In this document: one piece after another, positions 5,202-63,318 of the stretch | Layout: each line of letters opens with the position of its first letter | Position numbering within the stretch: the stretch's first letter is position 1 | Source of the DNA: a virus | Strand: one strand, 5' to 3' | Virus record (IMG/VR): IMGVR_UViG_3300007735_000800 | Span: 32,001 to 96,000 of that record | DNA: 64,000 nucleotides | Notes under the pieces: model-generated | Database searches by the model: none | Seen by the model: only the letters and a program-made list of their open reading frames with translations | What the model was told of the DNA's origin: nothing | Made by a program: the position numbers and the translations under genes

Positions 5202-5226
5202 TTCAGTATAACTATAATAGAACACT

Positions 5227-7226: not shown

Positions 7227-7384
7227 AACAAAATGTAAGACAGATTCTTAAAAGTGTAATTGAAGAAAATGCTGTAAATTTTAAAAACCAAACAAATAAA
7301 ATTTTATATTCCAAGGTTGGAGATAAATTAAAACAAGAATATGTGAATGTTTCTAGAAAATTATTTAATAATAAAGGCCAATAA
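7223..7384 (+). CDS. Small (53 aa) prohead-core-like protein, not in the supplied ORF track
   Basis: My translation: MKQNVRQILKSVIEENAVNFKNQTNKILYSKVGDKLKQEYVNVSRKLFNNKGQ. ATG overlaps the upstream TGA and its TAA abuts the gp21 ATG. Small helical protein at the usual gp67-like position. Confidence 0.65.
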   Translation: MKQNVRQILKSVIEENAVNFKNQTNKILYSKVGDKLKQEYVNVSRKLFNNKGQ

Positions 7385-8029: not shown

Positions 8030-8832
8030 TGGCGATTATAGATGACCATACCACAAGATTACTTTTGGAGGCTGTTAATAAACCAACAACCAGACAAAAG
8101 AAATTGAAGAAAAAGGCTACAGGAAAAAGCACAATTTCTGGTGGTTATGGCACGGGTGCCCCAAAGAGAGATGATGTTTCTCCTTTAAAGGCAAGTCCTG
8201 AACAAATATGGTTTGGAGCACAAACTAAAACACCACCCGGAACAGATCTTCCCACGCAAGCAATGTGGGGATATCATAAAAATTGGGTAAACAGAGCTTT
8301 GGAAGGTGTTACAGCTGGTAGTCTATACAGTATGGTAGATTCTTTAGCGCAAGGAGTCGGTGCTGGTGTTGGTTCTCTATTTGGTTTAGACCCAAATAAA
8401 AGTGCATATTGGACTGGAAAATTAATAAACAACCCTTTAGTTAAAAATCCAGCATCAGCTGCTGTCATTGAATTTGGTGTAAAACAAGCAGTTAGAACAA
8501 AAATAGCTCAAGAATATTTGGGTGGAACTCCAACAGGATTTTTTCAGCCAGGGACAGCTGAAGCTGAAATGGCTGATTTTTTCGTAGATGTAATAAGTGC
8601 AAAAGATAAACCAATTGCTGGAAAAAATAGATTTGGTAGACTTGGTCAAGCAGTAGCAGCAAAATTGCCCGAAATAGCTGCCATGGGCATTGATCCATTA
8701 GATTTTGCTACCGAATTGTTTGGTGCAAATGCTGCACTAAAGGCATACTCAAATATTGCAGGTAAAAGTGCTGCAGATGCAGCTGGTGCTGGTGGGTATT
8801 TACAAAAGGGTCGTTCTAAAGGAATTTATTAA
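8029..8832 (+). CDS. Hypothetical Gly/Ala-rich protein inserted between gp21 and gp22
   Basis: 267-aa ORF coupled to the gp21 stop; no recognisable family; early LLLE motif. Confidence 0.6.
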   Translation: MAIIDDHTTRLLLEAVNKPTTRQKKLKKKATGKSTISGGYGTGAPKRDDVSPLKASPEQIWFGAQTKTPPGTDLPTQAMWGYHKNWVNRALEGVTAGSLYSMVDSLAQGVGAGVGSLFGLDPNKSAYWTGKLINNPLVKNPASAAVIEFGVKQAVRTKIAQEYLGGTPTGFFQPGTAEAEMADFFVDVISAKDKPIAGKNRFGRLGQAVAAKLPEIAAMGIDPLDFATELFGANAALKAYSNIAGKSAADAAGAGGYLQKGRSKGIY

Positions 8833-8868: not shown

Positions 8869-9906
8869 ATGAATAAAAGAAACAACAAAAAAGATTTACA
8901 AGAAGTAATGAATGCTATGCAAGCTAACGGTGTAGCATTTACTCCAGATGGTCGTGGAGAAATAATCCCACAACCAATCGTAACCGCTAATAATTTAGCA
9001 AAAGCCCAGGTTCCTACTCCAGCTGCTGCTATGGCCGGAGCTTTTCCTGCTATGGGTGCTCCAGCTCCAATGCAACAATCTGCTCCGGAGCCTGAAGAAG
9101 AGGAAGAAGAAGAGGAAGAGGATGAAGACGAAGTAACAGAAGTAGAGGAAGCTGCCCGCATTCAATTCCGTTCAGCTCTAATTGAACTTCTTGGTGAAAA
9201 TGTTTCAGAATCTCTAGTTTCTCAACTTGAGGGAATTTTCGAAGCTGCTGTTCAAGAAAGAGTCAATGCTCATTTGAATGAAACTTTAGAAAATGTAGAT
9301 GGTAATGTAAAAAATTACCTAAATCAAGTAACAGAGAGCTTGGTTGAAAAAGTTGACGACTATCTAGATTATGTCGTAGAAGAATGGATGCAAGAAAATA
9401 CAGTTGCAGTTGAACAAGGCATCAAGACTCAAATTGCTGAAAATTTTATCGGCGGTCTAAAGAACTTGTTTGAAAATCATTACATCGACGTTCCAAATGA
9501 TAAGTATAATGCTTTAGATGAGCTTTATGCCCAAAATATTTCATTGCAACATACATTAAACAATGCCATCAATGAGAATCTAAATCTTCGCAAAGAAATC
9601 AATCTAACTGAGTGTGCTGGTGTCTTTGTTTCCGAAACAAGAGATCTTGCCGATACTCAAATTGCCAGATTGCAATCTTTGATGGAAAACGTTACCTTTA
9701 ATACAACTGATGAATACCGTGAAAAATTGGTAGCAATAAAGGACAACTATTTGCAATCGCAAAATTTTGTTCGTCCAGTTGTTCAACCAATTCCACAACC
9801 AACAATTATTACAGAAGAAATGACATTTTCGCCAGTCAGAAATACTGAATCATCCACAGTCGATCAGTATGCTGATGTAATTGGAAAACTCAACAGAAAA
9901 GTTTAA
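8869..9906 (+). CDS. gp22: Prohead scaffolding (core) protein
   Basis: Acidic N-terminus with poly-Glu; IFEAAV, VDDYLDYVVEEWM and FIGGLKNLFENHYIDVP motifs; precedes the MCP. Confidence 0.93.
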   Translation: MNKRNNKKDLQEVMNAMQANGVAFTPDGRGEIIPQPIVTANNLAKAQVPTPAAAMAGAFPAMGAPAPMQQSAPEPEEEEEEEEEDEDEVTEVEEAARIQFRSALIELLGENVSESLVSQLEGIFEAAVQERVNAHLNETLENVDGNVKNYLNQVTESLVEKVDDYLDYVVEEWMQENTVAVEQGIKTQIAENFIGGLKNLFENHYIDVPNDKYNALDELYAQNISLQHTLNNAINENLNLRKEINLTECAGVFVSETRDLADTQIARLQSLMENVTFNTTDEYREKLVAIKDNYLQSQNFVRPVVQPIPQPTIITEEMTFSPVRNTESSTVDQYADVIGKLNRKV

Positions 9907-9953: not shown

Positions 9954-11360
9954 ATGAATTTTCAAGACAATACGCCATATGATATTTTAACAGAGAAGTG
10001 GAATCCCGTGCTCGATCACGGCGCTCTTCCAACTATCGCTGATGATTACCGTAAGAAGGTCACTGCTGTCCTTCTTGAAAACCAAGAGCAATCAATTCGT
10101 GCTCAACACCTAACAGAAGACATGAGCTCCAATAACTTGGGAATGCCATCAAGCTTCACCAACAATGGTAGCGTTGCTGGATATGATCCAGTACTCATTT
10201 CGTTGGTTCGTCGCGCTATGCCAAATTTGATGGCATACGACATCTGTGGTGTTCAGCCAATGACCGCCCCAACTGGCCTCATTTTCGCAATGCGTGCCAA
10301 CTATGGTGGTTTCAGCTATGGTGCTACAGCTGGTTATGCTGAAGCAATGTTCCAAGAAGCCCAACCAAACTACGGTGGTTCTGGTTATACTATAGGATTG
10401 GATTACCGTGGATTTACAGCAGGCTACGGTCTCTGTGGTTCTTGCGGTCCAACCTCCGGTAACCCAACTACTAATGGAATTAGATCCTATACCGCAGCAC
10501 AATTCAGTGCTTTCCGTGGCATGTTGACCTCAACAGGTGAAGCTCTTGGTTCACCAACAGTTTTCAATCAAATGGCTTTCTCAATTGACCGTGTTGCCGT
10601 ACAAGCTCGTACACGCGCTCTAAGCAGCAACTACACAATTGAATTAGCACAAGATTTGAAAGCCGTTCACGGTCTTGATGCTGAAGCCGAACTCGCCAAC
10701 CTACTCAGCACTGAAATTCTTGCTGAAATCAACCGCGAGATCGTCCGCACCATCTACTACGTTGCTCGTAAGGGTTCTGTCCAATCAGATTTGACTGTTA
10801 CAGGTGAATATGATTTGAATTCAGATTCTGATGGTCGTTGGTCAGCTGAAAGATTCCGTGGTCTCACTTTCCAAATTGAGCGTGAGTGCAACGCAATCTC
10901 CAAGGAAACCCGTCGTGGTAAGGGCAACTTCATCATCTGCGATAGCGATACCGCAGCTGCCCTCGCCATGTCTGGCTTCATGAGCCTAAGCCCAGGAATC
11001 GCTCCACAACTCAATGTTGATGATACCCAAGGAACTTTTGCTGGTATCCTAAGTGGAAAGATTCGTGTTTATATCGATCCTTACACCCCACTCGGTGTAA
11101 ACTTCTTCTGCGCCGGCTATAAGGGCGAGTCACCATATGATGCAGGTTTGTTCTACTGCCCATACGTTCCTCTCCAAATGGTTCGTGCAGTTGATCCAAA
11201 TACCTTCCAGCCAAGAATTGCCTTCAAGACCCGTTATGGTGTCGTAGCCAACCCTTACGTCCTAAACGGAACTGCTCCAGATGGCGAAGCTTTAACTCAA
11301 GGTATCAATCAATACTACCGCTTGACTCAAGTCAAGAACCTACACGGTATGACACTCTGA
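9954..11360 (+). CDS. gp23: Major capsid protein
   Basis: LVRRAMPNLMAYDICGVQPMTAPTGLIFAMR, ELAQDLKAVHGLDAEAELANLLSTEILAEINRE, FYCPYVPLQM and FKTRYG motifs. Confidence 0.98.
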   Translation: MNFQDNTPYDILTEKWNPVLDHGALPTIADDYRKKVTAVLLENQEQSIRAQHLTEDMSSNNLGMPSSFTNNGSVAGYDPVLISLVRRAMPNLMAYDICGVQPMTAPTGLIFAMRANYGGFSYGATAGYAEAMFQEAQPNYGGSGYTIGLDYRGFTAGYGLCGSCGPTSGNPTTNGIRSYTAAQFSAFRGMLTSTGEALGSPTVFNQMAFSIDRVAVQARTRALSSNYTIELAQDLKAVHGLDAEAELANLLSTEILAEINREIVRTIYYVARKGSVQSDLTVTGEYDLNSDSDGRWSAERFRGLTFQIERECNAISKETRRGKGNFIICDSDTAAALAMSGFMSLSPGIAPQLNVDDTQGTFAGILSGKIRVYIDPYTPLGVNFFCAGYKGESPYDAGLFYCPYVPLQMVRAVDPNTFQPRIAFKTRYGVVANPYVLNGTAPDGEALTQGINQYYRLTQVKNLHGMTL

Positions 11361-23581: not shown

Positions 23582-24250
23582 ATGAATATTAAACAATTTA
23601 TATTTGACAATTCACCAATAAATAAATGTGGGCAAAGATGTCCAATTATTTTAGAAGCTGGAACAGCTCATGGGTTTGATACGGTTGAATTTGCTAAAAC
23701 ATATCCAGATGGTGTAATTTATGGAATTGAACCTATTACAGCGATGTATGATCATACATACATGTTAACAAAATCTTTTAATAATGTAAAACTATTTAAA
23801 AAAGCATTATCCGATAAAAATGGCAGCGCGGAAATGTATGTTTCATATTATTATGGTAGCCCAACAGGTTCTAGTTCGATACTGGAACCAAAAGACCATG
23901 TACATTTACATCCGGAAATAACATTTAACAATAAAGAAATTGTTGAAACAATTACGCTCGATGATTTTGTGGAAGAACAAAACATATCACATATTGATTT
24001 TATGTGGTTAGATTTGCAGGGATATGAACCAATTGTATTAAATAAATCAATAAAAACTCTTAAAAAGAGTAGGTATTTACACTGCGAAGTTACTATGATT
24101 GAATATTATAAAGATAATATAAAATATCCAGAGTTTAAAAAATTTTTAAATGATAATAATTTTGAAGTTTTAGATGAAAGTGAAATTTTTACTCCAAATG
24201 GAATTAAAAAAGCTGGAAATGTTTTGTTTAAAAATAAATCATATAATTAA
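23582..24250 (+). CDS. FkbM-family methyltransferase
   Basis: LEAGTAHG, GIEP, TITLDDF and IDFMWLDLQGYE motifs. Confidence 0.85.
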   Translation: MNIKQFIFDNSPINKCGQRCPIILEAGTAHGFDTVEFAKTYPDGVIYGIEPITAMYDHTYMLTKSFNNVKLFKKALSDKNGSAEMYVSYYYGSPTGSSSILEPKDHVHLHPEITFNNKEIVETITLDDFVEEQNISHIDFMWLDLQGYEPIVLNKSIKTLKKSRYLHCEVTMIEYYKDNIKYPEFKKFLNDNNFEVLDESEIFTPNGIKKAGNVLFKNKSYN

Positions 24251-24261
24251 GGTAAAATAAA

Positions 24262-24897
24262 ATGTATTATTCTCAGTATAATCAAGATAAAATTTTAAAT
24301 ACTAGAATTTTTAAAAATAAAAAAAATGGATTTTTTATAGATATAGGTGCACATGATGGAATAACATATTCCAATTCATATTTTTTTGAAAAAGAATTGG
24401 AATGGACAGGTATATGTGTGGAACCAAATCCATCCGTATTTAAACAATTACAAAAAAATAGAAAATGTACTTTAATAAACAAACCTGCTTGGATAGAAAA
24501 TAAAAAAGAAGTATTTTTTACAATTACAGGACATTCTGAAATGTTGAGTGGATTATACGACACATATCATCCAAAACATCTAAAAAGAATAAAGTCGGAA
24601 ATAGATGATTTAAATCAAAAATTTGAAATCACTGAAGTTGAATGTTTTGATTTAAATGAATATTTAATAAAAAATTCTATAAATAATATTGATTTTATTA
24701 GTTTAGACACCGAAGGAAGTGAATTTAAAATTTTAAAAAATATTGATTTTTCTCAAATTTCTATAAAAGTTATTGTAATAGAAATACCATATGATCAAAA
24801 TGAAGTAATAAATTTTTTAGAAAATAAAAATTTTTATCTATATGCATATGCTCAAAATTCAGATTTAATTTTTGTTAATAACAGCTATAAATTTTAA
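24262..24897 (+). CDS. FkbM-family methyltransferase
   Basis: YSQYNQD, FFIDIGAHDG...SNS, GICVEPNP and IDFISLDTEGSE motifs. Confidence 0.88.
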   Translation: MYYSQYNQDKILNTRIFKNKKNGFFIDIGAHDGITYSNSYFFEKELEWTGICVEPNPSVFKQLQKNRKCTLINKPAWIENKKEVFFTITGHSEMLSGLYDTYHPKHLKRIKSEIDDLNQKFEITEVECFDLNEYLIKNSINNIDFISLDTEGSEFKILKNIDFSQISIKVIVIEIPYDQNEVINFLENKNFYLYAYAQNSDLIFVNNSYKF

Positions 24898-24924
24898 TTA
24901 AAAAATTAAAAATATTCTTTATTA

Positions 24925-52396: not shown

Positions 52397-52699
52397 TTAG
52401 TGTCTTTCAAATCGACCTGCATTGAAAGTTCTGGATTGTTCTAATCTATCCTGCATGCTCTGAGGAGCTACCTTTTTTACTCTATTGATAACATCATTCC
52501 ATGCATTGCCATATACCTTTAATGGGGTGAGTGTGGTATCGTAGGCAACGCTATTAGCCTGTTCCGACCAATCCTTCACTACCTTTTTCTTTTTGCAACT
52601 TGGGCATGGTTCCCCTATGGGTTTACTGTTTTCCGCCATCTTCAAAAATAATTCAAATTTATGATCGCAAGCTTCGCATTTAAATGAATAGTTAGGCAT
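52397..52699 (-). CDS. FmdB-family zinc-ribbon protein
   Basis: MP.Y.F.CEAC.H.FE and CPSC motifs. Confidence 0.8.
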   Translation of the reverse strand: MPNYSFKCEACDHKFELFLKMAENSKPIGEPCPSCKKKKVVKDWSEQANSVAYDTTLTPLKVYGNAWNDVINRVKKVAPQSMQDRLEQSRTFNAGRFERH

Positions 52700-53189
52700 T
52701 TTTGTCTTTCTTGAATGTTATTAGCATATCATCAAATAAGAATCCATAAGAAGGTTCTTTTGGTTTTGATTTTAGTTCCATTTTAGCTTCTTTTGGGGTT
52801 CTGTTTCCCTTAAACAAATTGCAATCTTTGCAGGCTGCTACCATGTTTGTCCATGTAGACCCACCACCTTTCGACCTGGGTATCATATGGTCAACTGTGG
52901 CGGTTTTATCGCAAAGATCAATACCACAATACTGACATGCATATTTATCACGTTTAAATATGTTTTTTCGTGAGGGAGCCACTTTTTTAAATGGCAATTT
53001 TACATAATACTTCAAAATCAATACTTTAGGTATTTTAATAATTTTTGATACGGATACAACTTCGTAATATTCCCCTATGGAATCATCAGCCCACACTTTA
53101 TCTTTTGTAAGTAATTTAAAAGCCTTTGAAATCGTAATGATATTCAGGGGTGTACTGTCTTGATTCAACAGGAGAACCTGTTTCTTCAT
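52692..53189 (-). CDS. HNH endonuclease (McrA/HNH_5-like)
   Basis: VLLLNQD start; RDKYACQYCG, TVDHMIPRSKGG..W.N...AC..CN..KG; likely ATG at 53189. Confidence 0.88.
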   Translation of the reverse strand: MKKQVLLLNQDSTPLNIITISKAFKLLTKDKVWADDSIGEYYEVVSVSKIIKIPKVLILKYYVKLPFKKVAPSRKNIFKRDKYACQYCGIDLCDKTATVDHMIPRSKGGGSTWTNMVAACKDCNLFKGNRTPKEAKMELKSKPKEPSYGFLFDDMLITFKKDKNA

Positions 53190-53199
53190 ACTTCTTAAG

Positions 53200-53219
53200 T
53201 ATTTATGTAAATCTAAATA
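53200..53219. promoter_or_regulatory. Back-to-back late promoters (CATAAATA on minus, TCTAAATA on plus)
   Basis: TATTTATG at 53200-53207 and TCTAAATA at 53212-53219, in a 40-nt divergent gap. Confidence 0.6.
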
Positions 53220-53229
53220 TTTTACAGCC

Positions 53230-53916
53230 ATGGATAACAAGAATAATAGACAATTTTTTTGGGAAGTCAAGCAATTTTTTAATAAACCTCAGTTGAACGA
53301 GTCTGCTACTCCAAAACCGGATTTACTCAATACAGTAAAAAGTATAATGAGTTCCGACAGAGGGATAGACGGTGGAACTGAATTTAAAGTGCGAGAAGGA
53401 ATTATAAATTCTGGAAGAGATTTGAAACAAAAAACTGCTGATCTTTTAGACAGCTACAGTCATAAAAAATATACACAGACACCTTTGTCTTCAGGAAAAG
53501 GTCAAAACAGAACCGGTAATTTGTTTAACATAAATGAACAAAATATAGATGTAAAAAAACCAAAAGTAACTACTGAAAAAATTCTTGGGTTGGCTGCACA
53601 AAAACAAGATAATGAAGCCATGAATTATAGTTTCAATGCAACAGCTCCCGGAATGCAAAAGGTAAATTTTCCACAAAATCAAAAATATGCTGTTCAAGGA
53701 ACAAATAGAAAAAGTGGAATAAAGTCTGATGTTTATTCTATGGCCAAGGAAAGATTAGCTCTTCAAAAAATGTATAGCAAAATTGCAACTCCTAGACAAA
53801 TAAAAACAACAGGTAACGAAGGAAATGTTGGAGTCAATGTAACTTCCAAGTTGAGCAGTCAAGCTCCAGTAAATAAAACTGATCCGAGCCAATTAAACGC
53901 ACAAGAACTATTATAA
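53230..53916 (+). CDS. Hypothetical basic protein, putative internal head protein
   Basis: QLNE and INEQ (L/I-x-E) motifs; behind a late promoter. Confidence 0.5.
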   Translation: MDNKNNRQFFWEVKQFFNKPQLNESATPKPDLLNTVKSIMSSDRGIDGGTEFKVREGIINSGRDLKQKTADLLDSYSHKKYTQTPLSSGKGQNRTGNLFNINEQNIDVKKPKVTTEKILGLAAQKQDNEAMNYSFNATAPGMQKVNFPQNQKYAVQGTNRKSGIKSDVYSMAKERLALQKMYSKIATPRQIKTTGNEGNVGVNVTSKLSSQAPVNKTDPSQLNAQELL

Positions 53917-54917
53917 TGATTCCTCCAGTATTACATAAAATACTACATGAAAAATATGTTCAAACGAAGTTTGGTACACTTCGTGATGAAGATGACCAAT
54001 TAAAAGGTTGGCAAAGAGGTGAATATGGATCATTTGTATATCCAGGGCAATTAAGTAGAGGTGGGGATTTTGGGCAGTTTCCTCCAGAATCTGGCTTACC
54101 ACCAACAGAACCGCCCCAAACACCTCCTGGAGGAGGACCGGAGGGACCACGAGGTGGAAAACCAAAACAACCTTCAGGAGATCGCCCTCCAAGTAGAGCT
54201 TCTGAAATGGGAAGAAGATTTAGAGGAGCTCCAGAAAAACCTTCTTATGGTGGTATCCCATCAAGAGAAGGTGTGAGATTATCACCATACTTCTTTGATG
54301 ATATGGGGGGAGAAAACGTAAAATATTTTCAAGATTTGGTAAATAAATATAATCCACCCCCACCACCACAACCACCAAAATCAAAATTTTCTATTTCTCC
54401 TGAAGTAACAGGACTAGGAAAATTTGCAACTTCCATGGCAGCAGGAAGTGCAGCAGGGTATTATCCTGCAAAATGGACACAAGAATTAACACAACCTTAT
54501 CTGGGTGATATAGGCTCTTATTATGCAGGAACAGTGGCTGGAACTGCGGCTGGAATTCCAGCAGCAGAGATTGCGGTTACTGGAATCCCAGCGCTAATGG
54601 CAGGTGAAGGTATTGGTGGGGCAGCTTCATTGACAGCAGCTGCAGCCGGAAGCCAATTATTAAATCCTCTTACTTGGGTAACTGCCTTAGGTTTGGCAAC
54701 CATTTATCCAGCAGAAATTATAAAAGCAGAACAGCAGGCTAAAGTGTTGGAAAGAATAGAAAAAGAAGAAAGACTTAGAGAAAATAAAAGAAAAACCAAT
54801 GAAATATTGGGAATTAAAGAAGAAGATGATAATTGGTGGGAAGAATTTAAATATGATTTTAAAAGAGCAATGGCAGTTGGTGGGGCAGATGCAATAATGT
54901 CAGGAGGAAGAATGTAA
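53916..54917 (+). CDS. Hypothetical Pro-rich protein with a long Gly/Ala hydrophobic segment
   Basis: ILHE near the N-terminus; about 90-aa Gly/Ala-rich hydrophobic stretch; charged C-terminus. Confidence 0.55.
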   Translation: MIPPVLHKILHEKYVQTKFGTLRDEDDQLKGWQRGEYGSFVYPGQLSRGGDFGQFPPESGLPPTEPPQTPPGGGPEGPRGGKPKQPSGDRPPSRASEMGRRFRGAPEKPSYGGIPSREGVRLSPYFFDDMGGENVKYFQDLVNKYNPPPPPQPPKSKFSISPEVTGLGKFATSMAAGSAAGYYPAKWTQELTQPYLGDIGSYYAGTVAGTAAGIPAAEIAVTGIPALMAGEGIGGAASLTAAAAGSQLLNPLTWVTALGLATIYPAEIIKAEQQAKVLERIEKEERLRENKRKTNEILGIKEEDDNWWEEFKYDFKRAMAVGGADAIMSGGRM

Positions 54918-55834
54918 TGAAAAAATTAAAACCAGTTCTACAAAATATATTATTTAAAAGATATGTAAATTCATTGTTAAATGAACAATCTATTGCACCT
55001 CCACCAATCAGACTTCCATCGGCTGGATATGCACCATGGAAATTACCTACCCCGAATGCAATTAGACCTACTTTTGAATTACCAGTTACGCCAACAGAAG
55101 TTTCTCCTGGCACAACTACAATTTTTGCAAATCCCAATGTGCCTCCAGGCTCAGGCGCAGAACAAACTAAGAAAAAGTTAAGCTTTGATGATGCTCAAAC
55201 CGTAATAAAAAATGAAATAGAATCAGGATTGTCAAAAACAAAAAATCAAAAAGAACTAGTAGATTATGTTTTTGATAAACAAACAGAACTTTTATCAGAT
55301 TCTGAATATGGAGATCAATTGTCAATCTATGCCGGAAATGAAATAAAAAATAGATTGGGATTGGCTAAAACAGAAACACTACCAACACCGATTGAACCAA
55401 AACCTTTTAAATTTCCAACACAAAATCCGAAAGAAGTAATAAAACCGTCACCATTAACTACGACCCCTTCCACCGCCCCTGTTGAAGAACCAGAATTTAA
55501 TTATTCTCCAAAAGAAAAATCTGTGACACCCACTCTGAGTGCATTGTTTCCTTCCATGGTTCCCATTAGGTATTCTAAATTAAGAGCCTCACCAGATGAA
55601 GAATTGGAACTTCAAACAAAGTCTGAGTTTAAAGGACCAGAAAAATTTAAAACAGCAGTTGGTAGTGACGAATTAGAAATACGTCGAAAAGATGGAATGG
55701 GAACATTTCCCGGTATGGAACCATCTGAACAAGATGAAATAGAGCCATACGAAGGTTCTATGTATGATGTTGATGCAGATTTGTTATTAAAGAACATTTT
55801 AGGAAAATATTCTGGAACTTATAGAATTGAGTGA
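54917..55834 (+). CDS. Hypothetical Pro/Thr-rich protein
   Basis: LLNEQ near the N-terminus; coupled to the upstream gene. Confidence 0.5.
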   Translation: MKKLKPVLQNILFKRYVNSLLNEQSIAPPPIRLPSAGYAPWKLPTPNAIRPTFELPVTPTEVSPGTTTIFANPNVPPGSGAEQTKKKLSFDDAQTVIKNEIESGLSKTKNQKELVDYVFDKQTELLSDSEYGDQLSIYAGNEIKNRLGLAKTETLPTPIEPKPFKFPTQNPKEVIKPSPLTTTPSTAPVEEPEFNYSPKEKSVTPTLSALFPSMVPIRYSKLRASPDEELELQTKSEFKGPEKFKTAVGSDELEIRRKDGMGTFPGMEPSEQDEIEPYEGSMYDVDADLLLKNILGKYSGTYRIE

Positions 55835-55840
55835 TATAAT
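55813..55840 (+). promoter_or_regulatory. Possible sigma70-type promoter (TGGAAC-N16-TATAAT)
   Basis: Perfect -10, weak -35; the ATG only 2 nt downstream makes the geometry odd. Confidence 0.4.
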
Positions 55841-55842
55841 AA

Positions 55843-56511
55843 ATGGAAGTGTGTGAATTTAAAAAATTTAATCATCTTGTAAATCCAATAAAATGTGAAT
55901 TAAAGGAAGTTACAAAAAACGGAAAACGTTTTTATGCAACTCCGGTTGGAGAATTCCCAAGCGTAACTACAGTTGTTGGTTTTAAGAAACAGCAATTTTT
56001 TGCTGAATGGAGACAAAAAAATCCAGAAGAAAGCAAAAGAGTAACGACTAGAGGAACAAAATTTCATAAAATAATAGAACAGTATTTGAATAATGAAGTC
56101 TTGGATCTAGATTCTATAGGATCTGGAAACAAGGCTTTGTTCCTTTTATTGAAACCAGAGCTCGACAAGATAGATAACATCATAGCACTTGAAACTCCCC
56201 TGTGGTCAAAAACAATAGGTCTTGCGGGTAGAACAGACTGTATAGCAGAATATGATGGCAAGCTTTCAATAATAGATTTTAAAGCCAGCACAAAAGAAAA
56301 AAGAAAAAGCGATATTGAAAATTATTTTCTCCAGGCATGTGCATATGCTTTGATGTATCAAGAACAAACTGGGCAGATAATAGACAATTTTTCCATCTTA
56401 ATAGCATGTGAAGATGGTTTACGCCAAGTATTTGAAGACAAACCAATAAAATACGTAAGAGAACTAAAAAATATAATAACAGAATATAAGGAACGGTATG
56501 GAAATTCGTGA
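55843..56511 (+). CDS. PD-(D/E)XK exonuclease (Cas4-like T4-type exonuclease)
   Basis: FPSVTTV, RGTKFH..IE.YL, LAGRTDCIAEYDG...IIDFK and YFLQ..AY motifs. Confidence 0.9.
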   Translation: MEVCEFKKFNHLVNPIKCELKEVTKNGKRFYATPVGEFPSVTTVVGFKKQQFFAEWRQKNPEESKRVTTRGTKFHKIIEQYLNNEVLDLDSIGSGNKALFLLLKPELDKIDNIIALETPLWSKTIGLAGRTDCIAEYDGKLSIIDFKASTKEKRKSDIENYFLQACAYALMYQEQTGQIIDNFSILIACEDGLRQVFEDKPIKYVRELKNIITEYKERYGNS

Positions 56512-57076
56512 ATTAAAAAATATGGAAGATTTTGTTAATAGAAGAGGTTCCAAGTATTGGATTATGATGAATGACAGCTCAAAGGCCAAACTACACAGAG
56601 AAGCTCATATTAAAAAATATGGTGGATTTTTTGAAAAACAGGATAGATTTTTTATTTGGAGATCGCCAGTAGAAGAAAAAAATGGTTATTGGCTGAAAAA
56701 TATTCATACTAACGAAAAAACTTTCTTCAGCAATATGAAAGAATTTGGGGAAAAGAATGGCCTTACTGCTGTAAAAATATGTGAACTTTTAAATGGAAAA
56801 AGAAAAACATATAAAGGATGGACTGCGGTAGAGATAAGAGAAGTCAAGGATGGAGTTGGTTCCAATATAAAAGCCAAAAATGAACCAAAAAAGAAAATAA
56901 AGGTTTTTGAAGGTGCAACTTTCCAAAATATGGAAACAAAGCAAGTGTTCTTTGTTGATAATATAAGTGAGTACGCAAAAGCAAATAATATCAATGGCGG
57001 AAATTTATATAAAGTCGCCAGGGGTAAGATGAAAAGCTACAAAGGTTTGAAACTTTATAACCCACTAGAACCTTAA
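56498..57076 (+). CDS. Protein with two NUMOD1-like DNA-binding repeats, no nuclease domain recognised
   Basis: NMKEFGEKNGL...KICELLNGKRKTYKGW and NISEYAKANNI...NLYKVARGKMKSYKG. Confidence 0.65.
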   Translation: MEIRELKNMEDFVNRRGSKYWIMMNDSSKAKLHREAHIKKYGGFFEKQDRFFIWRSPVEEKNGYWLKNIHTNEKTFFSNMKEFGEKNGLTAVKICELLNGKRKTYKGWTAVEIREVKDGVGSNIKAKNEPKKKIKVFEGATFQNMETKQVFFVDNISEYAKANNINGGNLYKVARGKMKSYKGLKLYNPLEP

Positions 57077-57082
57077 AATTAT

Positions 57083-57090
57083 GATAAATA
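57083..57090 (+). promoter_or_regulatory. Late promoter variant (GATAAATA)
   Basis: 6 nt before the ATG at 57097. Confidence 0.6.
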
Positions 57091-57096
57091 ATTTAG

Positions 57097-59457
57097 ATGA
57101 ACTTCAAAGATTTATTAAAATTAACAGAAGAAAGCCGCACCAAGGCAGATTCTTTCCGTACAACTGGTGAAGCAACTCAAAAAGAGCGAGCAAAGTCTAG
57201 CGCTCCAGATGCAAAAGCCAAAGATGCCGCAAGAAAGCGTGTAGAAAGATCTAAAAAACTTCCAAGGGATAGAATGCCAAAGGAGCAACTCATCCGAGAA
57301 GTTATCGCAGTAAGAACAGCCTCTGGTAGAGTACAATTAATCTTTAAAGATTCTTTCAATAAAAATGTACATACTAAAATAAATCGTGGCGACACTCTTA
57401 CCATGGAGGAAGCCAGATCTTTCACCCAGGAGGATGGGTTTGAACAAACAGGTGCTTCAAAACTTTTGTTTGGAGATGTCAAAACAAAAGAACCAACGGA
57501 TAAAAGAGTAGCAAAAAAGGGGGAAGAGGGAGAAGAAAAGGAAGCTGAAGCCGAGGCAGAGCCTGAGCCCCTTGAAAAACCAGAGAAAAGAGCAAAAAGA
57601 CTGTCTCCAGAAGAAATATTTGATTTGATGAGCCAAATGGGTCCAGAACAATTGGCTCAAATGCCATTTGAGGTCAGACAGCAATATTTTAAACAAGTAA
57701 GAAATCCACCTTCAAATGTTGATTTTGATAACGCATCATTTGAAACTTTAAGCACAAAATTTGGTATCAATCCAATATCATCGGTTCCATACAATCAACA
57801 AGTTTTAAATGCATTGGTATTCTTGGCTAAGATAAAATCTGGTGCCAGCGAACAGGAGCTGGGTACATATACAGCATTAGCCCCAAGTGCACTGGAGTTT
57901 ACAAAAAATGCATTCCTGCAGGCAAAGAAAATATTGTCACAAATAGGTGAACAATGCATTCAAAACTTAATATCAACAATTGAAAATGGAAGCAAGAGCA
58001 CCTTCAGTGAGGGTGGCGTTGATATGGAATGTGGAAATTATAAATTTAAAATGTCCGTTGGTGGTGAAGTCTCTTTGACCACAGATAAGTTTAATCAAGA
58101 AGGAAAAGGAATAAGAGGAATTATTGCCACCGCTATAAATCAAACTCTAAACAATCCTGAAACCATGAATGACCCAAAAGTGAAGGAATTTATATCAACT
58201 TCAGGACAAGTTGGATCAAAATTTGGCCAAAAATTAATAAATCAACAAACATTTTCATCTTTAAAGAATTCACCAGATGTTATAGAACAATTGAAGCAAA
58301 CAATGGTCTTTGGAGAAAATGGACAAGCATTGGGACCTTATGTTGATTCAAAAGGAAATCTTAATAAATTTGCATCTTTTGAGAATTATGAAAAAGAAAT
58401 AACCAAAGATGCTTCATCTTTGTTTAAATCCTCTAAAGATAAACCAAATGGTTTTGCATCAAATTTTGTAAAAACTGTTTTGAAAATGTTTTACAGGGGT
58501 GATGGAATAAAACAACCAGAATTTGCGCCAACACACATGATAACACAAAATGGGGTATTTCCCATGACGGATGCCTATTTTGATGAAATATCAAAAACTG
58601 CAGTTTTAACAATGAACAATGTTAAGCCACTGATCAGTGCTGCAAACATAGAATCGGGAAAGAAAAAACCATCTGAAAGATTGGCTCAATTTGCAACCGT
58701 AGTCGAAGAAACACAAAAGCAAAAAGAACCAGATATTTTTATTGATAGATCAAATATAAATCCATTGCAATTAGCAATGGCTTCTATATCACAAAGCATG
58801 GAATTTGATATCAATGCCAGTCTTTTACCTGGATTCTCTCCAAAAGACCTTAATGCTATACAATATAATATAGTAAGAATCGGTAAAAAGACTGTAAGAA
58901 TCCCAGTTGAGAGAAATGACACAGTTACAAATGAGATAATGGCAGAGAGTCATATACTGGTAAATGATATTTTAGTTGAATCTTTGACAAATAATTTTGT
59001 TTTGAATACATTGCTAGCATCAAGATTGATGACTAAAGATGAAGCAATATCAATTACTTCTGAAAACTTTTTGCTGGAAAGTGCAAATCCGATAAGATCA
59101 ATATATGAAAGAGTATTGACCAGAGTTAACAAAAATCCAGAGATGTTGATTGCAGTATTGAACAAATACAATTCTTATCTCTATGAAAAATATGTCCGTG
59201 ATTACAAAATGGAATACCGAAATTATCATGGAAAAGCAAAACAGAGAAAAGAAAGAGCAAAAAGAACAGCAGCTAGAGAAAATCTCATTAAAAAGGGAAG
59301 AGTAAAAAAGGGAGATGGTAAAGATATTGACCATAAAAAACCACTAAGAAGTGGTGGTTCAAATGGTATAAATAATTTACGAATCAGAAATAAATCTGAA
59401 AATAGAGCTGATAACGGCCACAAAAAAGGTGAAAAACAAAACAAGGATTGGAAATGA
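57097..59457 (+). CDS. Large putative internal head protein with C-terminal HNH nuclease domain
   Basis: N-terminal MNFKDLLKLTEE; C-terminal DIDHKKPLRSGGSNGINNLRIRNKSENR (HNH). Confidence 0.65.
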   Translation: MNFKDLLKLTEESRTKADSFRTTGEATQKERAKSSAPDAKAKDAARKRVERSKKLPRDRMPKEQLIREVIAVRTASGRVQLIFKDSFNKNVHTKINRGDTLTMEEARSFTQEDGFEQTGASKLLFGDVKTKEPTDKRVAKKGEEGEEKEAEAEAEPEPLEKPEKRAKRLSPEEIFDLMSQMGPEQLAQMPFEVRQQYFKQVRNPPSNVDFDNASFETLSTKFGINPISSVPYNQQVLNALVFLAKIKSGASEQELGTYTALAPSALEFTKNAFLQAKKILSQIGEQCIQNLISTIENGSKSTFSEGGVDMECGNYKFKMSVGGEVSLTTDKFNQEGKGIRGIIATAINQTLNNPETMNDPKVKEFISTSGQVGSKFGQKLINQQTFSSLKNSPDVIEQLKQTMVFGENGQALGPYVDSKGNLNKFASFENYEKEITKDASSLFKSSKDKPNGFASNFVKTVLKMFYRGDGIKQPEFAPTHMITQNGVFPMTDAYFDEISKTAVLTMNNVKPLISAANIESGKKKPSERLAQFATVVEETQKQKEPDIFIDRSNINPLQLAMASISQSMEFDINASLLPGFSPKDLNAIQYNIVRIGKKTVRIPVERNDTVTNEIMAESHILVNDILVESLTNNFVLNTLLASRLMTKDEAISITSENFLLESANPIRSIYERVLTRVNKNPEMLIAVLNKYNSYLYEKYVRDYKMEYRNYHGKAKQRKERAKRTAARENLIKKGRVKKGDGKDIDHKKPLRSGGSNGINNLRIRNKSENRADNGHKKGEKQNKDWK

Positions 59458-60605
59458 AAGTCAAGAAACTTCTTGAAAAAGTTTATGCTAACTCTGGTTT
59501 AGGAAAATGGTTCAATAAAGAATCTGGTGGTGGTGGTCCGGGATGGGATCGCTATAACACAAAAGGAGATAGAGTGGGCAAATGCGGAGATAGCGATGAG
59601 GGTGAACCATATGCAGCTTGCTTAAGCAAGCAAAAAGCAAAGAAGTTGGGAAAAGGTGGCGTTGGTTCTTTTGTAAGAAGAAAAAGAGCTGCCCAAAAGA
59701 AGGCTGGCAAGGGAACTAAAGGTTCAGTGAAAGGTAAAGGGAAAAAACCTGTATTTGTAAAAACTGGAGTCACCGAAGTCAAAGAATCATATGATATATT
59801 TTTAGTTGAGGGCGCATCTTCTGTTTTCACTATGCAATTTTCACCTATAGAAGCGTGGGAATTGCTGCCATGTGATTTGATAATAAATGAATCGGGTGAA
59901 ATTTTTGATGTGGATTATATTGAAGAAAAGGATGGAATCTTAATTGTTGAGATGACCGACGAAATTGGAAATGAAATAACGGAATATTTTAATAAAAACA
60001 CTGTAATGGGATTTTTGGATAATTTGGAAGAAACTTCAAGTAATGAGTTTGGAGATAAGATTGAAGTTTATGAGAGTGAAGGTAAAAAAGTTAAATTAAA
60101 CAAAATAATGCGTGGAGATGTTAAAAAATATAAAGTTTTTGTTAAAAATGATAAAGGCAATGTTGTAAAAGTTAATTTTGGTGATCCAAACATGGAAATC
60201 AAACGTGACGACCCAAACAGACGTAAAAACTTCCGTGCAAGACACAATTGCGACAACCCGGGCCCACGATGGAAGGCAAGATATTGGGCATGCAAAACAT
60301 GGAGCAGCAAACCAGTTACAGCAATGTTAAAAGAAGAAGACCTCATACTTGAAGCAAAGAAGAATAAGCCCAAAGATCCCGCTAAATGGTCTTCCTGCAT
60401 CTCACAGGCCAAGAAAAAGTTTGATGTGTATCCATCCGCATATGCAAATGCATGGGCTGCAAAGTGCTATAAAGGCAAAGGAGGAGGCTGGAAGAAGGTC
60501 TCCGAAGATGTTGCCCACAAAATGTTAAAAACACTGGAAAATAAAGAATACAATCCGAATTTATTTGGTTTGATGGAACAAAGAACTTTTAACAGAGATA
60601 AATAA
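59448..60605 (+). CDS. Multi-module basic protein (three Cys/Trp-containing modules separated by acidic linkers)
   Basis: Modules GLGKWF...CLSKQKA, VNFGDP...RRKNFRARHNC...RYWAC and KFDVYPSAYANAWAAKCYKGKGG. Confidence 0.6.
   Translation: MEMKVKKLLEKVYANSGLGKWFNKESGGGGPGWDRYNTKGDRVGKCGDSDEGEPYAACLSKQKAKKLGKGGVGSFVRRKRAAQKKAGKGTKGSVKGKGKKPVFVKTGVTEVKESYDIFLVEGASSVFTMQFSPIEAWELLPCDLIINESGEIFDVDYIEEKDGILIVEMTDEIGNEITEYFNKNTVMGFLDNLEETSSNEFGDKIEVYESEGKKVKLNKIMRGDVKKYKVFVKNDKGNVVKVNFGDPNMEIKRDDPNRRKNFRARHNCDNPGPRWKARYWACKTWSSKPVTAMLKEEDLILEAKKNKPKDPAKWSSCISQAKKKFDVYPSAYANAWAAKCYKGKGGGWKKVSEDVAHKMLKTLENKEYNPNLFGLMEQRTFNRDK
60597..60604 (+). promoter_or_regulatory. Late promoter variant (GATAAATA)
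   Basis: Overlaps the upstream stop. Confidence 0.55.
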
Positions 60606-60614
60606 AATAGAACC

Positions 60615-61148
60615 ATGAAATTTAAACAATTATTACAAATAACAGGACCCATCTATGAAAATTCTGGTGAACAAACCTTTGGTGGTGGTTTGTTCATCGG
60701 TGATCCACAAGCACCAAATAAATCAAGTGCATTGACAGATAAAGGAACTTTCAACATAAAACTTCCTCGTTCTTTAGATGCAATTAATGCTTTGTTGTAC
60801 GGTCTTGGACAAAAAGAATACATTGATCCGGATTCAGTTCTTAATGTTGTAAAACAAAAATTAAATCATTTTGGATTTGATTTTCAATATATGAATTCCC
60901 TTCCAGATGGCGAGACTTTGATCAAGCTATTCCAATATGGAAGTCCATATATCGGTGTTTATGGAATGACTCCTCACCAAGACGTAAATGAAACAGGATT
61001 CTCTTCTGATGGTATCAAGGAAAAACTTGGTCACGGCTTAAACTTAAGAGTAAATATAGTAAAACAGCCAAACATGTTACGCAAGGTCGAACTTATGATC
61101 GTCCCTGCAATGGATAGTGAGAATTCTGATTGTGGCTGCATGCACTGA
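60615..61148 (+). CDS. Hypothetical protein, putative internal head protein
   Basis: MKFKQLL...IYE leader. Confidence 0.5.
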   Translation: MKFKQLLQITGPIYENSGEQTFGGGLFIGDPQAPNKSSALTDKGTFNIKLPRSLDAINALLYGLGQKEYIDPDSVLNVVKQKLNHFGFDFQYMNSLPDGETLIKLFQYGSPYIGVYGMTPHQDVNETGFSSDGIKEKLGHGLNLRVNIVKQPNMLRKVELMIVPAMDSENSDCGCMH

Positions 61149-61155
61149 TTTAAAA

Positions 61156-61551
61156 ATGCAAAACAATATTTTGTTGACAGAGGAAAATTTTATGCTCTTC
61201 TGCCAACAAAATTATTTTAATCCACATTGCAGTGGAAAAAATGAATTTATTGATGATTTAAAACGCATCAAATATATCAAGCGATTAATACAAAAAATTC
61301 ATAAACAAAAGACTTTAAAATCAATTCGGGAAAGATTGATAATAAATCACATAGTTATTTTAAAAAATGTATTTGGTGAGGAAAATTGTGCTAGGATATT
61401 ATTTTTTAGACTAGAACCTAGATTGCATTCTTATTTAAAATCTTTCATGGTATTTTTGGAATTCAATGTCAAGAATATACCAGAAGTTCAGTATAAACTA
61501 ATAAATACTGATCCTAGAGTAGACAGAAAATTAATAGGTGTAGAATCCTAA
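61156..61551 (+). CDS. Conserved T4-like hypothetical protein
   Basis: LTEENFMLF....Y.NP...EF.DDLKRIKYIKRL and LIINH.V.L.NVFG motifs of a family conserved in marine T4-likes. Confidence 0.7.
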   Translation: MQNNILLTEENFMLFCQQNYFNPHCSGKNEFIDDLKRIKYIKRLIQKIHKQKTLKSIRERLIINHIVILKNVFGEENCARILFFRLEPRLHSYLKSFMVFLEFNVKNIPEVQYKLINTDPRVDRKLIGVES

Positions 61552-61554
61552 ATA
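61547..61554 (+). promoter_or_regulatory. Late promoter variant (CCTAAATA)
   Basis: 6 nt before the ATG at 61561. Confidence 0.5.
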
Positions 61555-61560
61555 ATTTTA

Positions 61561-63318
61561 ATGGCTGGCAAAACTTATATACCAACATTTTATTTTTATA
61601 ATTTTGCTGACTTAGTTGCTTCACCATATACTAAGTTTGCCGCATATGCTAGTGGACTTATAGATGAAAAAGGCAACTTGACCGGAAATGAATCATCTAT
61701 AGATCCATTAGAATATTTTGTAATTAAACTAAAGAAGATATTTGAACAATTGCCACCGGGCGTTACAAAATATAAACTTGGAAATATTATGGGAATAATG
61801 CAATTATTCTCAGAAGAAGTTTCATATTTTGGTGTCACAAAAGATCAATTCAATTGTTTGGTGGAAGCTCACATAACAAATATTACGGATGGTAAAGTGA
61901 GCTATTTGGAGTTATTGGAAGATATGAGTACTGGAGGAATGGCTGGTGGGCTTGGGAAGCCTGCAGATGCGCCTGAAGCAAATAAGGGAAACGTATCAGG
62001 ATATGATCCTGTCATGGGTTCTCTCCAGAGCAGATCGGGACCAGTTAACATGATCGGTGCGGTAGAAATGTTTGGAGTTCCTTCTTCCGAATTCCAAATG
62101 ATGAAGAAAACAAATGCATATCCAAAAAATGCAACAGGAAATTATTTGAGAAGATTTGGATTGAGAAATGCCGATAAAAAGATGGCAATAAGGGATGAAG
62201 AAACTGGAGAGATTCACTGGCTCCCGGCTCCAAACAAAAAAACGTTTGTGGAGAAATTTAATTTGAATGATTTAAATATATTAAAAGAGTCTTTTATAGA
62301 ACCTGAAACAACTCCATCTGGGAATTCAGCTAAATCTGAAGTGTGGGCTTTAAAAGCTGTATCAAATTTTTTAAGTAAAAATTTTGAACATGTTCCATGG
62401 GAAGGCGAATTGGGTCCAGGAGAATTTGCTGTATCTACTGGTGGTAGAGGCAAACTCGATATGAAATTAAAAGATCGAGATGGTGTGGAAATACCAATAG
62501 AAGTAAAAAGTATAAAAGCCAACCCAAGTTATACTGCTTTTAATATGGATTTATCTACGAAAAATAATCCAAAAGGTGTAGCCACATATGCATCGACTGC
62601 TCACGGATTAACTGACATATATGATCCAGAATATGAAGAGCAAATTGATGACTTACTTAGAGGAAGTCCAATAGAAAATATTTCCAAACAATTAGAAGCA
62701 AGAGGAGAAAAATTTACAGCACATGGAATCCCGAGCATAGGGTATAGATCTCTTCAACAAAGAGGAGTACCAATACTCGGTAGCCCTCAAAGAGCAAGAG
62801 AAAGGGTTTTAGGCTGGAGAAAGGGACTGTTGGACATTGTTGGTAATGAAAAAAGAGGTGTTGTTCTTGCTGTGAATCCTGAGATGCGCCATATGCATGT
62901 TTTAAATATGGAAACTGGCCAGAATGGTTCTGCAGTTAACAGATTATTAAGAGATATGGGTGGTCTTGTTCCAACCGGAACAGCATCAACACCAAATGTT
63001 GAGAGTGGAATGTATTTGCCATATGTAAAAATGGCAAAAGGATCCAACCCAGAGGAAAGAAAACTAAGAAAAACCTTGAGAGATCAGGGAGCTAGCCCAG
63101 AAGAAATTGCAAGAACTTTGGCAAGTGCTAAAAAGGCTGGAGATATACCACAAGCAAGAAGAATGTTACGTGTAGATTATAGATTCTCTCCAGATGGATC
63201 TACTGATGATCCATGGGTAAGAAATGGTCAAATCGCATTTGGAGATTTGAATCTGGGAAATAGAGAAAATTTTAGAGATTGGGAAAAAGAATTAGAAAGA
63301 TTATCCAGAGCAGAATAA
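61561..63318 (+). CDS. Conserved T4-like N-terminal domain fused to a PD-(D/E)XK nuclease-like domain
   Basis: N-terminal PYTKFAAY..GLIDEKGN...KLKKI.E..PPG; internal GKLDMKL...PIEVKS catalytic-like motif. Confidence 0.6.
   Translation: MAGKTYIPTFYFYNFADLVASPYTKFAAYASGLIDEKGNLTGNESSIDPLEYFVIKLKKIFEQLPPGVTKYKLGNIMGIMQLFSEEVSYFGVTKDQFNCLVEAHITNITDGKVSYLELLEDMSTGGMAGGLGKPADAPEANKGNVSGYDPVMGSLQSRSGPVNMIGAVEMFGVPSSEFQMMKKTNAYPKNATGNYLRRFGLRNADKKMAIRDEETGEIHWLPAPNKKTFVEKFNLNDLNILKESFIEPETTPSGNSAKSEVWALKAVSNFLSKNFEHVPWEGELGPGEFAVSTGGRGKLDMKLKDRDGVEIPIEVKSIKANPSYTAFNMDLSTKNNPKGVATYASTAHGLTDIYDPEYEEQIDDLLRGSPIENISKQLEARGEKFTAHGIPSIGYRSLQQRGVPILGSPQRARERVLGWRKGLLDIVGNEKRGVVLAVNPEMRHMHVLNMETGQNGSAVNRLLRDMGGLVPTGTASTPNVESGMYLPYVKMAKGSNPEERKLRKTLRDQGASPEEIARTLASAKKAGDIPQARRMLRVDYRFSPDGSTDDPWVRNGQIAFGDLNLGNRENFRDWEKELERLSRAE

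Follow-up and report, generated by a model that had tools for sequence, protein, structure and literature searches.

Probable head-internal proteins with conserved N-terminal leaders in an uncultured aquatic T4-like phage

The DNA analysed here, referred to as the window, is a stretch of 64,000 nucleotides that covers positions 32001-96000 of the IMG/VR contig IMGVR_UViG_3300007735_000800 (126,277 bp, approx. 70% complete). Its source is a divergent, uncultured, aquatic T4-like myovirus: the terminase, the sheath, two tube proteins, the portal, a gp21-type protease, a gp22-type scaffold and gp23 were recognised by PHROG profiles, and so were replication genes, while the identity of gp23 to the cyanophage gp23 proteins is 54% at most. 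The subject of this study is the block at positions 53230-63318, which is filled by ten plus-strand genes, A, B, C, D, E, F, G, H, I and J. In an earlier reading of the sequence (the original prediction) the products of the block had been proposed to be cargo proteins packaged in the capsid and processed by the head protease. Judged from the sequences, F, G and H and the hypervariable slot formed by A, B and C probably encode head-internal, protease-trimmed proteins, although about half of the block does not agree with this. These six genes are listed below; here and in the text a slash marks the end of a leader.

53230-53916, plus strand: A, first gene of the slot, a basic low-complexity protein
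53916-54917, plus strand: B, slot protein with a leader of the B/C type, MIPPVLHKILHE/KYV
54917-55834, plus strand: C, slot protein with a leader of the B/C type ending in PVLQNILFKRYVNSLLNE/Q, LLNE at amino acids 20-23
57097-59457, plus strand: F, basic protein of 786 amino acids (87 kDa)
59454-60605, plus strand: G, basic Cys/Trp-rich chain of small modules with the leader MKVKKLLE/KV
60615-61148, plus strand: H, acidic protein of 177 amino acids with the leader MKFKQLLQITGPIYE/N

Related loci were collected with F as the query. In this way 54 loci were obtained at 46-65% identity, about 50 of them syntenic, and the gene order common to these is a minus-strand HNH gene, the slot from A to C, then D, E, F, G, H, I and J, followed by two minus-strand genes. 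Neither the block nor F, its largest protein, had a match among 50,697 cultured phage records in nucleotide and tblastn searches, so that no virion proteome from a cultured member of the clade is available.

The leaders quoted in the original prediction (QLNE, ILHE, LLNE, MNFKDLLKLTEE, KLLE and MKFKQLLQITGPIYE) were all found in their places. The claim that they end in a common motif, [LI]-x-E (Leu or Ile, any residue, Glu), held for F, G, H and the B/C type, where the motif is conserved among the relatives, but not for the QLNE of A and the LIDE of J, which are not conserved, nor for D and I, whose motifs are located within domains. The leaders of F (MNFKDLLKLTEE, MNFKDLLKLTE(E)), G (MKVKKLLE) and H (MKFKQLLQITGPIYE) are 12, 8 and 15 amino acids long, respectively, and have in common an F-K-x-L-L or K-x-L-L core and the terminal [LI]xE. 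F and H have the same leader start and no similarity in their bodies. The motif is present within the first 20 amino acids of F in 39 of the 40 distinct N-termini, it is retained as [LI]xE-K in 30/30 N-termini of G, and in all the 35 distinct N-termini of H. In the relatives, P2 of F is occupied by 12 residue types and P1' mostly by Ala; those relatives that do not have the site at residues 10-12 carry a replacement [LI]xE at 16-18. In H, position 13 is restricted to L or I and position 15 to E, and residues 11, 12 and 14 are variable (entropy 2.5-3.0 bits). The codons of the fixed L and F residues in the H leader vary synonymously, which indicates that selection acts on the peptide, and the leader was rejected as a nucleotide-level signal on this ground. 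In the AlphaFold2 (AF2) model of F the residues 3-16 form a helix, and the linker at 14-25 is disordered, with a predicted local distance difference test score (pLDDT) below 50.

The genes for the presumed processing enzyme, for the presumed docking partner of the leaders and for the capsid protein are located elsewhere in the window; the gp21-type protease, the gp22-type scaffold and the gp23 of a T4-type capsid targeting sequence (CTS) system are all present in the phage.

7385-8029, plus strand: gp21-type prohead protease (phrog_207, head maturation protease, E=4.8e-82), presumed processing enzyme
8869-9906, plus strand: gp22-type scaffold (phrog_237, E=3e-61), presumed docking partner for the leaders
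9954-11360, plus strand: gp23, major capsid protein (phrog_138, E=1e-144)

As had been pointed out in the original prediction, the motif occurs both in gp21, the N-terminus of which is MKLITELTE, and in gp23. The latter is 36% identical to T4 gp23 by BLASTP, and its LTE at amino acids 53-55 is 4 residues off the column of the T4 cleavage site, FLTE/A. An [LI]xE within the first 20 amino acids is common to all six head-core genes (those starting at 6801, 7223 and 8029, gp21, gp22 and gp23), and it is present in none of the terminase, the sheath, the two tube proteins and the portal (0/5). The number of sites in the whole proteins shows a similar difference: 13 were observed against 3.5 expected in gp22, 7 against 1.4 in the 141-amino-acid core protein and 7 against 2.2 in gp21, that is a 3-5-fold enrichment, while the tail proteins are depleted (one site each in the sheath and the tube proteins). 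The excess in gp22 is as expected of a protein that is shredded by the protease. A, B, C, F and H have the motif at the background level. The head-core pattern, together with the LTE of gp23 near the T4 site, makes it plausible that the protease of the phage retains the T4 cleavage rule. The protease gene is flanked by three unannotated genes (6801-7384 and 8029-8832) coding for 141, 53 and 267 amino acids, each with an N-terminal [LI]xE; these are likely to be counterparts of the T4 prohead-core proteins gp67/gp68, or additional internal proteins.

The frequency of the motif in the genome was determined on a crude, ATG-only call of the longest open reading frames (ORFs). The set of 178 ORFs contains some spurious ones, which dilutes an enrichment and should not create it. 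An [LI]xE is present in the first 20 amino acids of 53 of the 178 ORFs (29.8%) and in 15.9% of the interior windows (P=2.5e-6); in the same test the control motifs [LI]xD, [LI]xQ, [VA]xE, [FYW]xE and [LI]E gave no N-terminal enrichment, their ratios being 0.8-1.1. The enrichment anticipated in the original prediction was thus seen at the N-termini genome-wide, but the comparison it had suggested, that of late with non-late genes, gave a weak difference only (P=0.02 at 15 amino acids, not significant at 30, P range 0.02-0.14). The background chance of at least one [LI]xE within 28 positions is about 25%. Since the bare motif is common in a single genome, it is weak evidence there, and the case rests on its conservation across the relatives.

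Leaders closer to those of T4 were found on other genes of the same genome. The start pattern M-x(1,2)-F-[KR]-x-[FLYI]-[LIV], which was chosen after viewing the data, occurs in 8 of the 178 ORFs against 0.11 expected (P ~7e-13). These are F, H and six further ORFs, which begin with MKSFKQFLIE, MLSFKQFLVE, MKSFKEYLME, MKRFKKFLIE, MRRFKEFLEN and MKSFKKFLEE. The T4 internal proteins IPII and IPIII, as translated from NC_000866, start with MKTYQEFIAE/A, to be compared with MKSFKQFLIE/Q here. In the T4 CTS, targeting is mainly via residues 4 and 7 and processing via residues 8 and 10 (PMC9026906), and positions 4, 7, 8 and 10 of the tag found here match these reported determinants. The canonical short propeptide, defined by residues 4 and 7 and the terminal L/I-x-E, is exact in the six genes outside the block, and the leaders of F, G and H are variants of it. 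In the relatives MLRFKQFL[IVL]E stands on other bodies, and among 12 proteins with canonical leaders only 2 pairs show partial body similarity. One leader on unrelated mature proteins, as in the T4-type system, was thus found for the canonical tag, for the B/C type and for F and H; one tag on diverse bodies is a hallmark of the T-even internal-protein loci (PMC3012670). The six tag genes are located at 24250-24924, 108967-109272 and 113083-115221 of the contig (-7750 to -7076, 76967-77272 and 81083-83221 in window coordinates), four of them in tandem. One of their bodies is a DUF6321 protein, another has a weak similarity to lysozyme that does not reach the cut-off (E=0.004), and the others match nothing.

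The promoters upstream of the genes of the block are the following.

53214-53219, plus strand: TAAATA late promoter core of A, 10 nucleotides 5' of its ATG (relatives: 32/32, at 9-10 nucleotides)
57085-57090, plus strand: TAAATA late promoter core of F, 6 nucleotides 5' of its ATG (relatives: 54/54, at 6-7 nucleotides)
60599-60604, plus strand: TAAATA late promoter core of H, 10 nucleotides 5' of its ATG (relatives: 52/52)
61549-61554, plus strand: TAAATA late promoter core of J, 6 nucleotides 5' of its ATG (relatives: 47/49)
55832-55840, plus strand: TGATATAAT, extended -10-like box, 2 nucleotides 5' of the ATG of D

In the whole genome 25 of the 201 copies of TAAATA end 3-15 nucleotides 5' of a called start, against 1.8 expected, therefore the promoter-start arrangement is genuine. 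With the late TAAATA so close to these 25 start codons, many late mRNAs would be nearly leaderless. According to the original prediction most genes of the block follow late promoters. This was borne out by A, F, H and J, the only genes with a conserved TAAATA directly 5' of them (6-10 nucleotides here, 5-13 for the conserved copies), but B, C, G and I are only downstream in such units, and D and E follow the -10-like box. Own late promoters for B, C, G and I were rejected: the TAAATA copies 40-100 nucleotides 5' of these genes are not conserved and look like AT-rich noise. A TAAATA within 40 nucleotides of the start was found in 0/39 relatives for G and in 2/47 for I, and a conserved one precedes none of D, E, G and I in the relatives. 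At the box of D, GATATAAT was found in 4/4 of the relatives sampled, and TAAATA stands 5' of D in only 6 of 43. Thus four late units (A-B-C, F-G, H-I and J) are interrupted by an early-type D-E unit behind the -10-like box. Expression alongside head assembly, a feature of the T4-type CTS system, is indicated by the late promoters of A, F, H and J, and D and E do not share it. The late promoter and start of A (53214-53231) are located inside the 5' end of the divergent HNH endonuclease gene (52692-53231, minus strand), and the start codons of the two genes overlap by two bases.

The slot extends over 2-5 kb from the HNH gene to D and contains 2-4 genes, whose low-complexity bodies are mostly unalignable. 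Their N-termini belong to three conserved types: A, B/C and a third one. The conserved leader of the A type is MDNKxxRQFYWEVKxF, and its bodies are between 96 and 792 amino acids long. An [LI]xE is present in the first 28 amino acids of A-type proteins in only 7/30 relatives (22/27 in the first 45), hence the QLNE of A, at amino acids 21-24, is not a conserved feature. The consensus of the B/C type is M-x-K-L-x-P-[ILV]-L-x-x-I-L-E-x-R-Y…L-L-x-E, with [LI]xE in the first 28 amino acids of 27 of the 28 distinct N-termini, and the 32 bodies behind these leaders fall into 12 BLAST components. B itself has ILHE at amino acids 9-12, a Pro/Gly-rich middle and an Ala/Gly-rich hydrophobic hairpin. By BLAST no homologue was found for the body of B and only one for that of C, and no family match was found for A, B and C in PHROG and Pfam. 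The third type, M-x-Y-L-T-N-x-Y-K-N…L-Q-E…L-E, has [LI]xE in the first 28 amino acids in 17/17 N-termini, and in this genome it is carried by genes outside the window.

Two side observations concern the same slot. The third leader type, there in the form M-x-Y-L-T-N-x-Y-K-N…L-L-E, heads proteins with dockerin/EF-hand-like calcium-binding repeats; genes of this type are at 5350-7814 and 10500-11159 of locus L061 (69349-71813 and 74499-75158 in window coordinates) and at 5067-5510 of the genome, and in the relatives the type is found in the slot between the HNH gene and D. The C-terminal ends are conserved as well: LGKYSxxYRI is the conserved tail of C (C-terminus at 55765-55834 in the window), and at the equivalent ends in the related loci the product of the last slot gene, irrespective of the type of its leader, has …D-[IV]-D…L-G-K-Y-S-x-x-Y-R-I as its tail, and the A-type proteins end in [ST]-[FY]-R-[IV]. 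This conserved tail of the slot proteins may be a second docking or processing element.

In F the leader is followed by a disordered linker and by folded domains, and an HNH-like domain stands at the C-terminus (approx. amino acids 700-786, nucleotides 59194-59457). The last 90 or so residues match phrog_4590 (E=9e-20), and the C-terminal 75 or so share approx. 50% identity with stand-alone phage proteins annotated 'HNHc domain' in BFVD. D745-H746, N760 and N769, canonically spaced for an HNH motif, do not vary among the 25 sequences (25/25), and two strands and a helix were modelled by AF2 at 742-773. No Pfam HNH match was obtained for the C-terminus, and no relative of F was found in the PDB (profile search, none at E<=1; Foldseek against the PDB gave noise only). 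The remainder of F has a weak BFVD match to cyanophage proteins of 276 amino acids. F is not a fast-changing effector but a stable core gene of the clade, with at least 212 protein clusters, all of approx. 780-810 amino acids, under the Joint Genome Institute names 'hypothetical' or 'McrA'.

The ATG of G overlaps the stop codon of F (ATGA), which suggests translational coupling. In G the leader is followed by an optional Cys/Trp module, a basic linker, a second module that begins after a nearly conserved F-[LI]-V-E, an invariant, DUF5754/Hva1-like module 3 that ends in an invariant M-L-K-E, a variable linker, an optional fourth module and a tail; the alignment of the relatives showed that modules 1 and 4 are optional. 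G contains 10 [LI]xE sites against 3.9 expected (P=0.007), and it is plausible from the sequence that it would be cut at the module joints into several small basic proteins. Sequences similar to modules 3 and 4 are found in annotated short genes from phages of Pelagibacter and Roseobacter and from a Nitrosopumilaceae virus. For H no family or known fold was found in PHROG, Pfam and Atlas, the last of which gave only unnamed viral clusters.

The remaining genes of the block are not counted among the candidates or stand apart from them.

55843-56511, plus strand: D, PD-(D/E)XK exonuclease (phrog_298, E=1.2e-63; PF12705, E=5.7e-9, above the cut-off)
56498-57076, plus strand: E, NUMOD-like DNA-binding modules (PF22083, phrog_2081, phrog_925)
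61156-61551, plus strand: I, DUF7207 protein 3' of H (PF23837, E=6.5e-31)
61561-63318, plus strand: J, conserved N-domain and hypervariable C-domain

D matches the PD-(D/E)XK exonuclease profile including the catalytic core, and its LKE (amino acids 20-22), the K of which is mostly fixed, is within the stretch matched by the PHROG (protein residues 8-219). No nuclease domain was detected in E by profile searches, and no conserved [LI]xE was found across the 54/54 related loci, all of which contain E. Its modules are of the homing-endonuclease type; E resembles a domesticated DNA-binding protein more than a mobile endonuclease. D and E were rejected as cargo, since they have a -10-type box instead of a late promoter and the motif of D is inside its domain; their motifs are not leader-like, and they are probably ordinary non-virion genes. 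In I the sequence LTEENF is conserved, its T being nearly fixed, and the motif is inside the Pfam domain DUF7207; I may or may not be cargo and is not counted as such.

J was found in 49 of the F-centred loci; with its exact peptide patterns as locus queries nothing was found. The N-domain (amino acids 1 to approx. 243) is matched by two PHROGs of unknown function, which cover the N-terminus of J only. Its amino acids 2-147 are gp61.1-like by tblastn (gene 61.1 of the Acinetobacter phage Acj9; in phiM12 the gene is beside the primase). The N-terminal LIDE is not conserved among the relatives, but an [LI]xE near the domain boundary is present in 34/38 of them, mostly as an ILxE that ends the conserved domain: the N-domain ends here with …LNILKE and in most relatives with …L-[DN]-I-L-x-E, and past this boundary the aligned sequences diverge completely. 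The C-domain contains a D…EVK motif. A PD-(D/E)XK restriction-endonuclease fold is suggested by its neighbours in the Atlas, R.HinP1I, SmaI, ThaI, PvuII and Eco47II at 0.81-0.85, but these are leads only, and so are the structural matches to PDDEXK_5 and SmaI, at TM below 0.6, the AF2 pLDDT being below 50 there. None of 25 J homologues had a Pfam hit, there was no PDB profile match at E<=1, and a fold search with the N-domain in VIA-align gave noise (Z<=5.1). From its sequence J might have a cleavable carrier-effector design; an ordinary domain boundary is equally possible.

With moderate confidence we favour the following explanation: the N-terminal tags direct F, G, H and the slot proteins to the prohead core, and the gp21-type protease trims them, similarly to what happens in T4. 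The leader, which is short, amphipathic and ends in [LI]-x-E, would dock the protein on the scaffold core while the prohead assembles, by analogy with IPI-III and Alt of T4; the prohead protease would then remove it after the Glu, and the mature protein would stay in the head with the DNA and might enter the cell along with it. The leader end corresponds to the cleavage rule of T4-type prohead proteases, and such a protease is encoded by the phage. What was established is the presence of conserved leaders, of the promoters, of the protease and of the tag common to several genes; docking, cleavage, packaging and injection would follow the T4 example. The injected effector arsenal for host takeover or anti-defence of the original prediction is conjectural. 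Several points weigh against this explanation. The leaders of F, G and H are variants of 8-15 amino acids rather than the canonical 10-mer, and the start pattern shared by F, H and the six other ORFs was selected post hoc. H is acidic and the T4 internal proteins are basic; F is a stable core gene with an apparently intact HNH motif, which would be risky beside packaged DNA. The sole strongly conserved candidate of A is YWE, outside the L/I rule. A conserved L-x-E is also found inside the folded domains of D and I, so that conservation alone is no proof of cleavage. F is without a match in the 50,697 phage records and its clade without a cultured member; the processing of the leaders is a prediction.

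The leaders might instead be conserved N-terminal helices that are not cleaved at all and serve oligomerisation, the binding of a chaperone or assembly factor, or the translation of leaderless mRNAs, the proteins themselves being late non-virion or tail-associated ones. This is unlikely, but it is to be taken seriously. With late promoters 5-13 nucleotides 5' of the ATG the mRNAs are nearly leaderless and their first codons could be constrained, but the synonymous variation at the fixed residues speaks against a signal at the nucleotide level. D and I do show that a conserved LxE can belong to a fold, and the N-domain of J resembles gp61.1, the gene of which is a neighbour of that for the primase in other T4-like phages and which is not a known virion protein. 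However, a constraint on only [LI] and E with a free middle, and a site that moves in F, are a better fit to a protease site; in addition, the tag is nearly that of the T4 CTS and is common to unrelated bodies, and the annotated tail and packaging proteins are without the N-terminal motif. That the whole block is a set of unrelated hypothetical genes, in which a tripeptide common in an AT-rich genome occurs by chance, is highly improbable. The background frequency of the motif, the weak contrast of the late-promoter genes (P=0.02-0.14) and the lack of conservation of the quoted A and J motifs would agree with it, but F, G and H retain the motif in practically 100% of the relatives with P2 free, which contradicts it for these three, and the shared tag (P ~7e-13) and the 6/6 against 0/5 distribution between head-core and tail/packaging proteins are also against it. 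Chance survives only for the QLNE of A, the LIDE of J and the motifs in D, E and I.

It is also conceivable, though rather improbable, that the proteins are targeted and cut but are accessory scaffold or core proteins like gp67 and gp68 of T4, which would be shredded and expelled before DNA packaging and neither retained nor injected. The number of sites in G is on par with those of gp22 and of the 141-amino-acid core protein, and the slot proteins are of low complexity and variable length with conserved ends, as scaffold-like spacers might be. Against this, A, B, C, F and H, with their background number of sites, would survive at near full length, folded domains and a nuclease-type motif that is intact are present in F, and the modules of G match annotated short genes of unrelated phages, in which they are unlikely to serve as scaffold. 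An extension of the favoured explanation, speculative and hardly to be expected, is that the cluster is a part of a delivery system larger and more modular than that of T4, with interchangeable tags and mixed cargo. F would then be a pre-made HNH nuclease and G a polyprotein of small nucleic-acid-binding modules cut at the L-x-E joints, while J, similarly to the polymorphic toxins, would comprise a conserved carrier, an ILxE cut site and a swappable C-terminal effector (a restriction-endonuclease-like nuclease in this genome) that is freed in the head and injected against the DNA of the host or of a rival.

The T4 CTS, present on IPI, IPII, IPIII and Alt, is removed by gp21 (Mullaney & Black 1996, reviewed in PMC9026906, PMC3012670, PMC5694885). 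The block resembles this system in the combination of a gp21-type protease with short N-terminal propeptides (8-23 amino acids here, 10-19 in T4), in the aromatic or hydrophobic residues at positions 4 and 7 with L/I-x-E at the end, and in the identical tag on unrelated bodies and the hypervariable locus. It differs in having at least 4-5 leader classes instead of one, with those of F, G and H lengthened or shortened, and in the candidate cargo: a conserved protein of 87 kDa with an HNH-like domain, a chain of several modules, some of which are optional, and long proteins of low complexity whose C-terminal tails are conserved. No sequence homologue of IPI-III or of Alt is present here, and, unlike that of T4, the system is known from sequence alone. 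The hypervariable internal-protein loci of the T-even phages likewise combine a conserved CTS with diverse bodies (PMC3012670, PMC9026906). The interval from A to D is comparable to these, with its 2-5 kb, 2-4 genes, three leader types and mostly unalignable bodies; however, the bodies here are 96-1181 amino acids long, of low complexity, rich in Pro/Gly/Ser and provided with conserved C-terminal tails, whereas in T-even phages they are small, compact and basic. In the giant phages phiKZ, 201phi2-1 and SPN3US, ejection proteins carry long cleavable propeptides that are cleaved at S/A/G-x-E (PMC5694885). J, if it were cut at the ILxE near amino acid 243, which is pure conjecture, would be similar in its long conserved N-part, its mature C-part and its processing after Glu; the differences are that P3 is L/I here and A/S/G there, that the protease here is closer to T4 gp21, and that the N-domain of J is gp61.1-like. 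A literature search for CTS-type tags in marine, cyanophage or aquatic T4-like phages returned only papers on T4 and the giant phages. The block is thus a variant of the T4 CTS/internal-protein system and not a new principle.

Proteins packaged in the capsid reach the cell before phage gene expression and are the first line against host defences. To our knowledge, good characterisations of them exist for only a handful of phages, T4 and the phiKZ/SPN3US group among them. If the tags work as in T4, an abundant uncultured aquatic T4-like clade carries more, and more varied, packaged proteins than T4. Packaged proteins would then be identifiable by their tag from the sequence alone, their exact neo-N-termini would be predictable for viral metaproteomics, and the leaders would add to the portable tags with which foreign proteins can be loaded into capsids.

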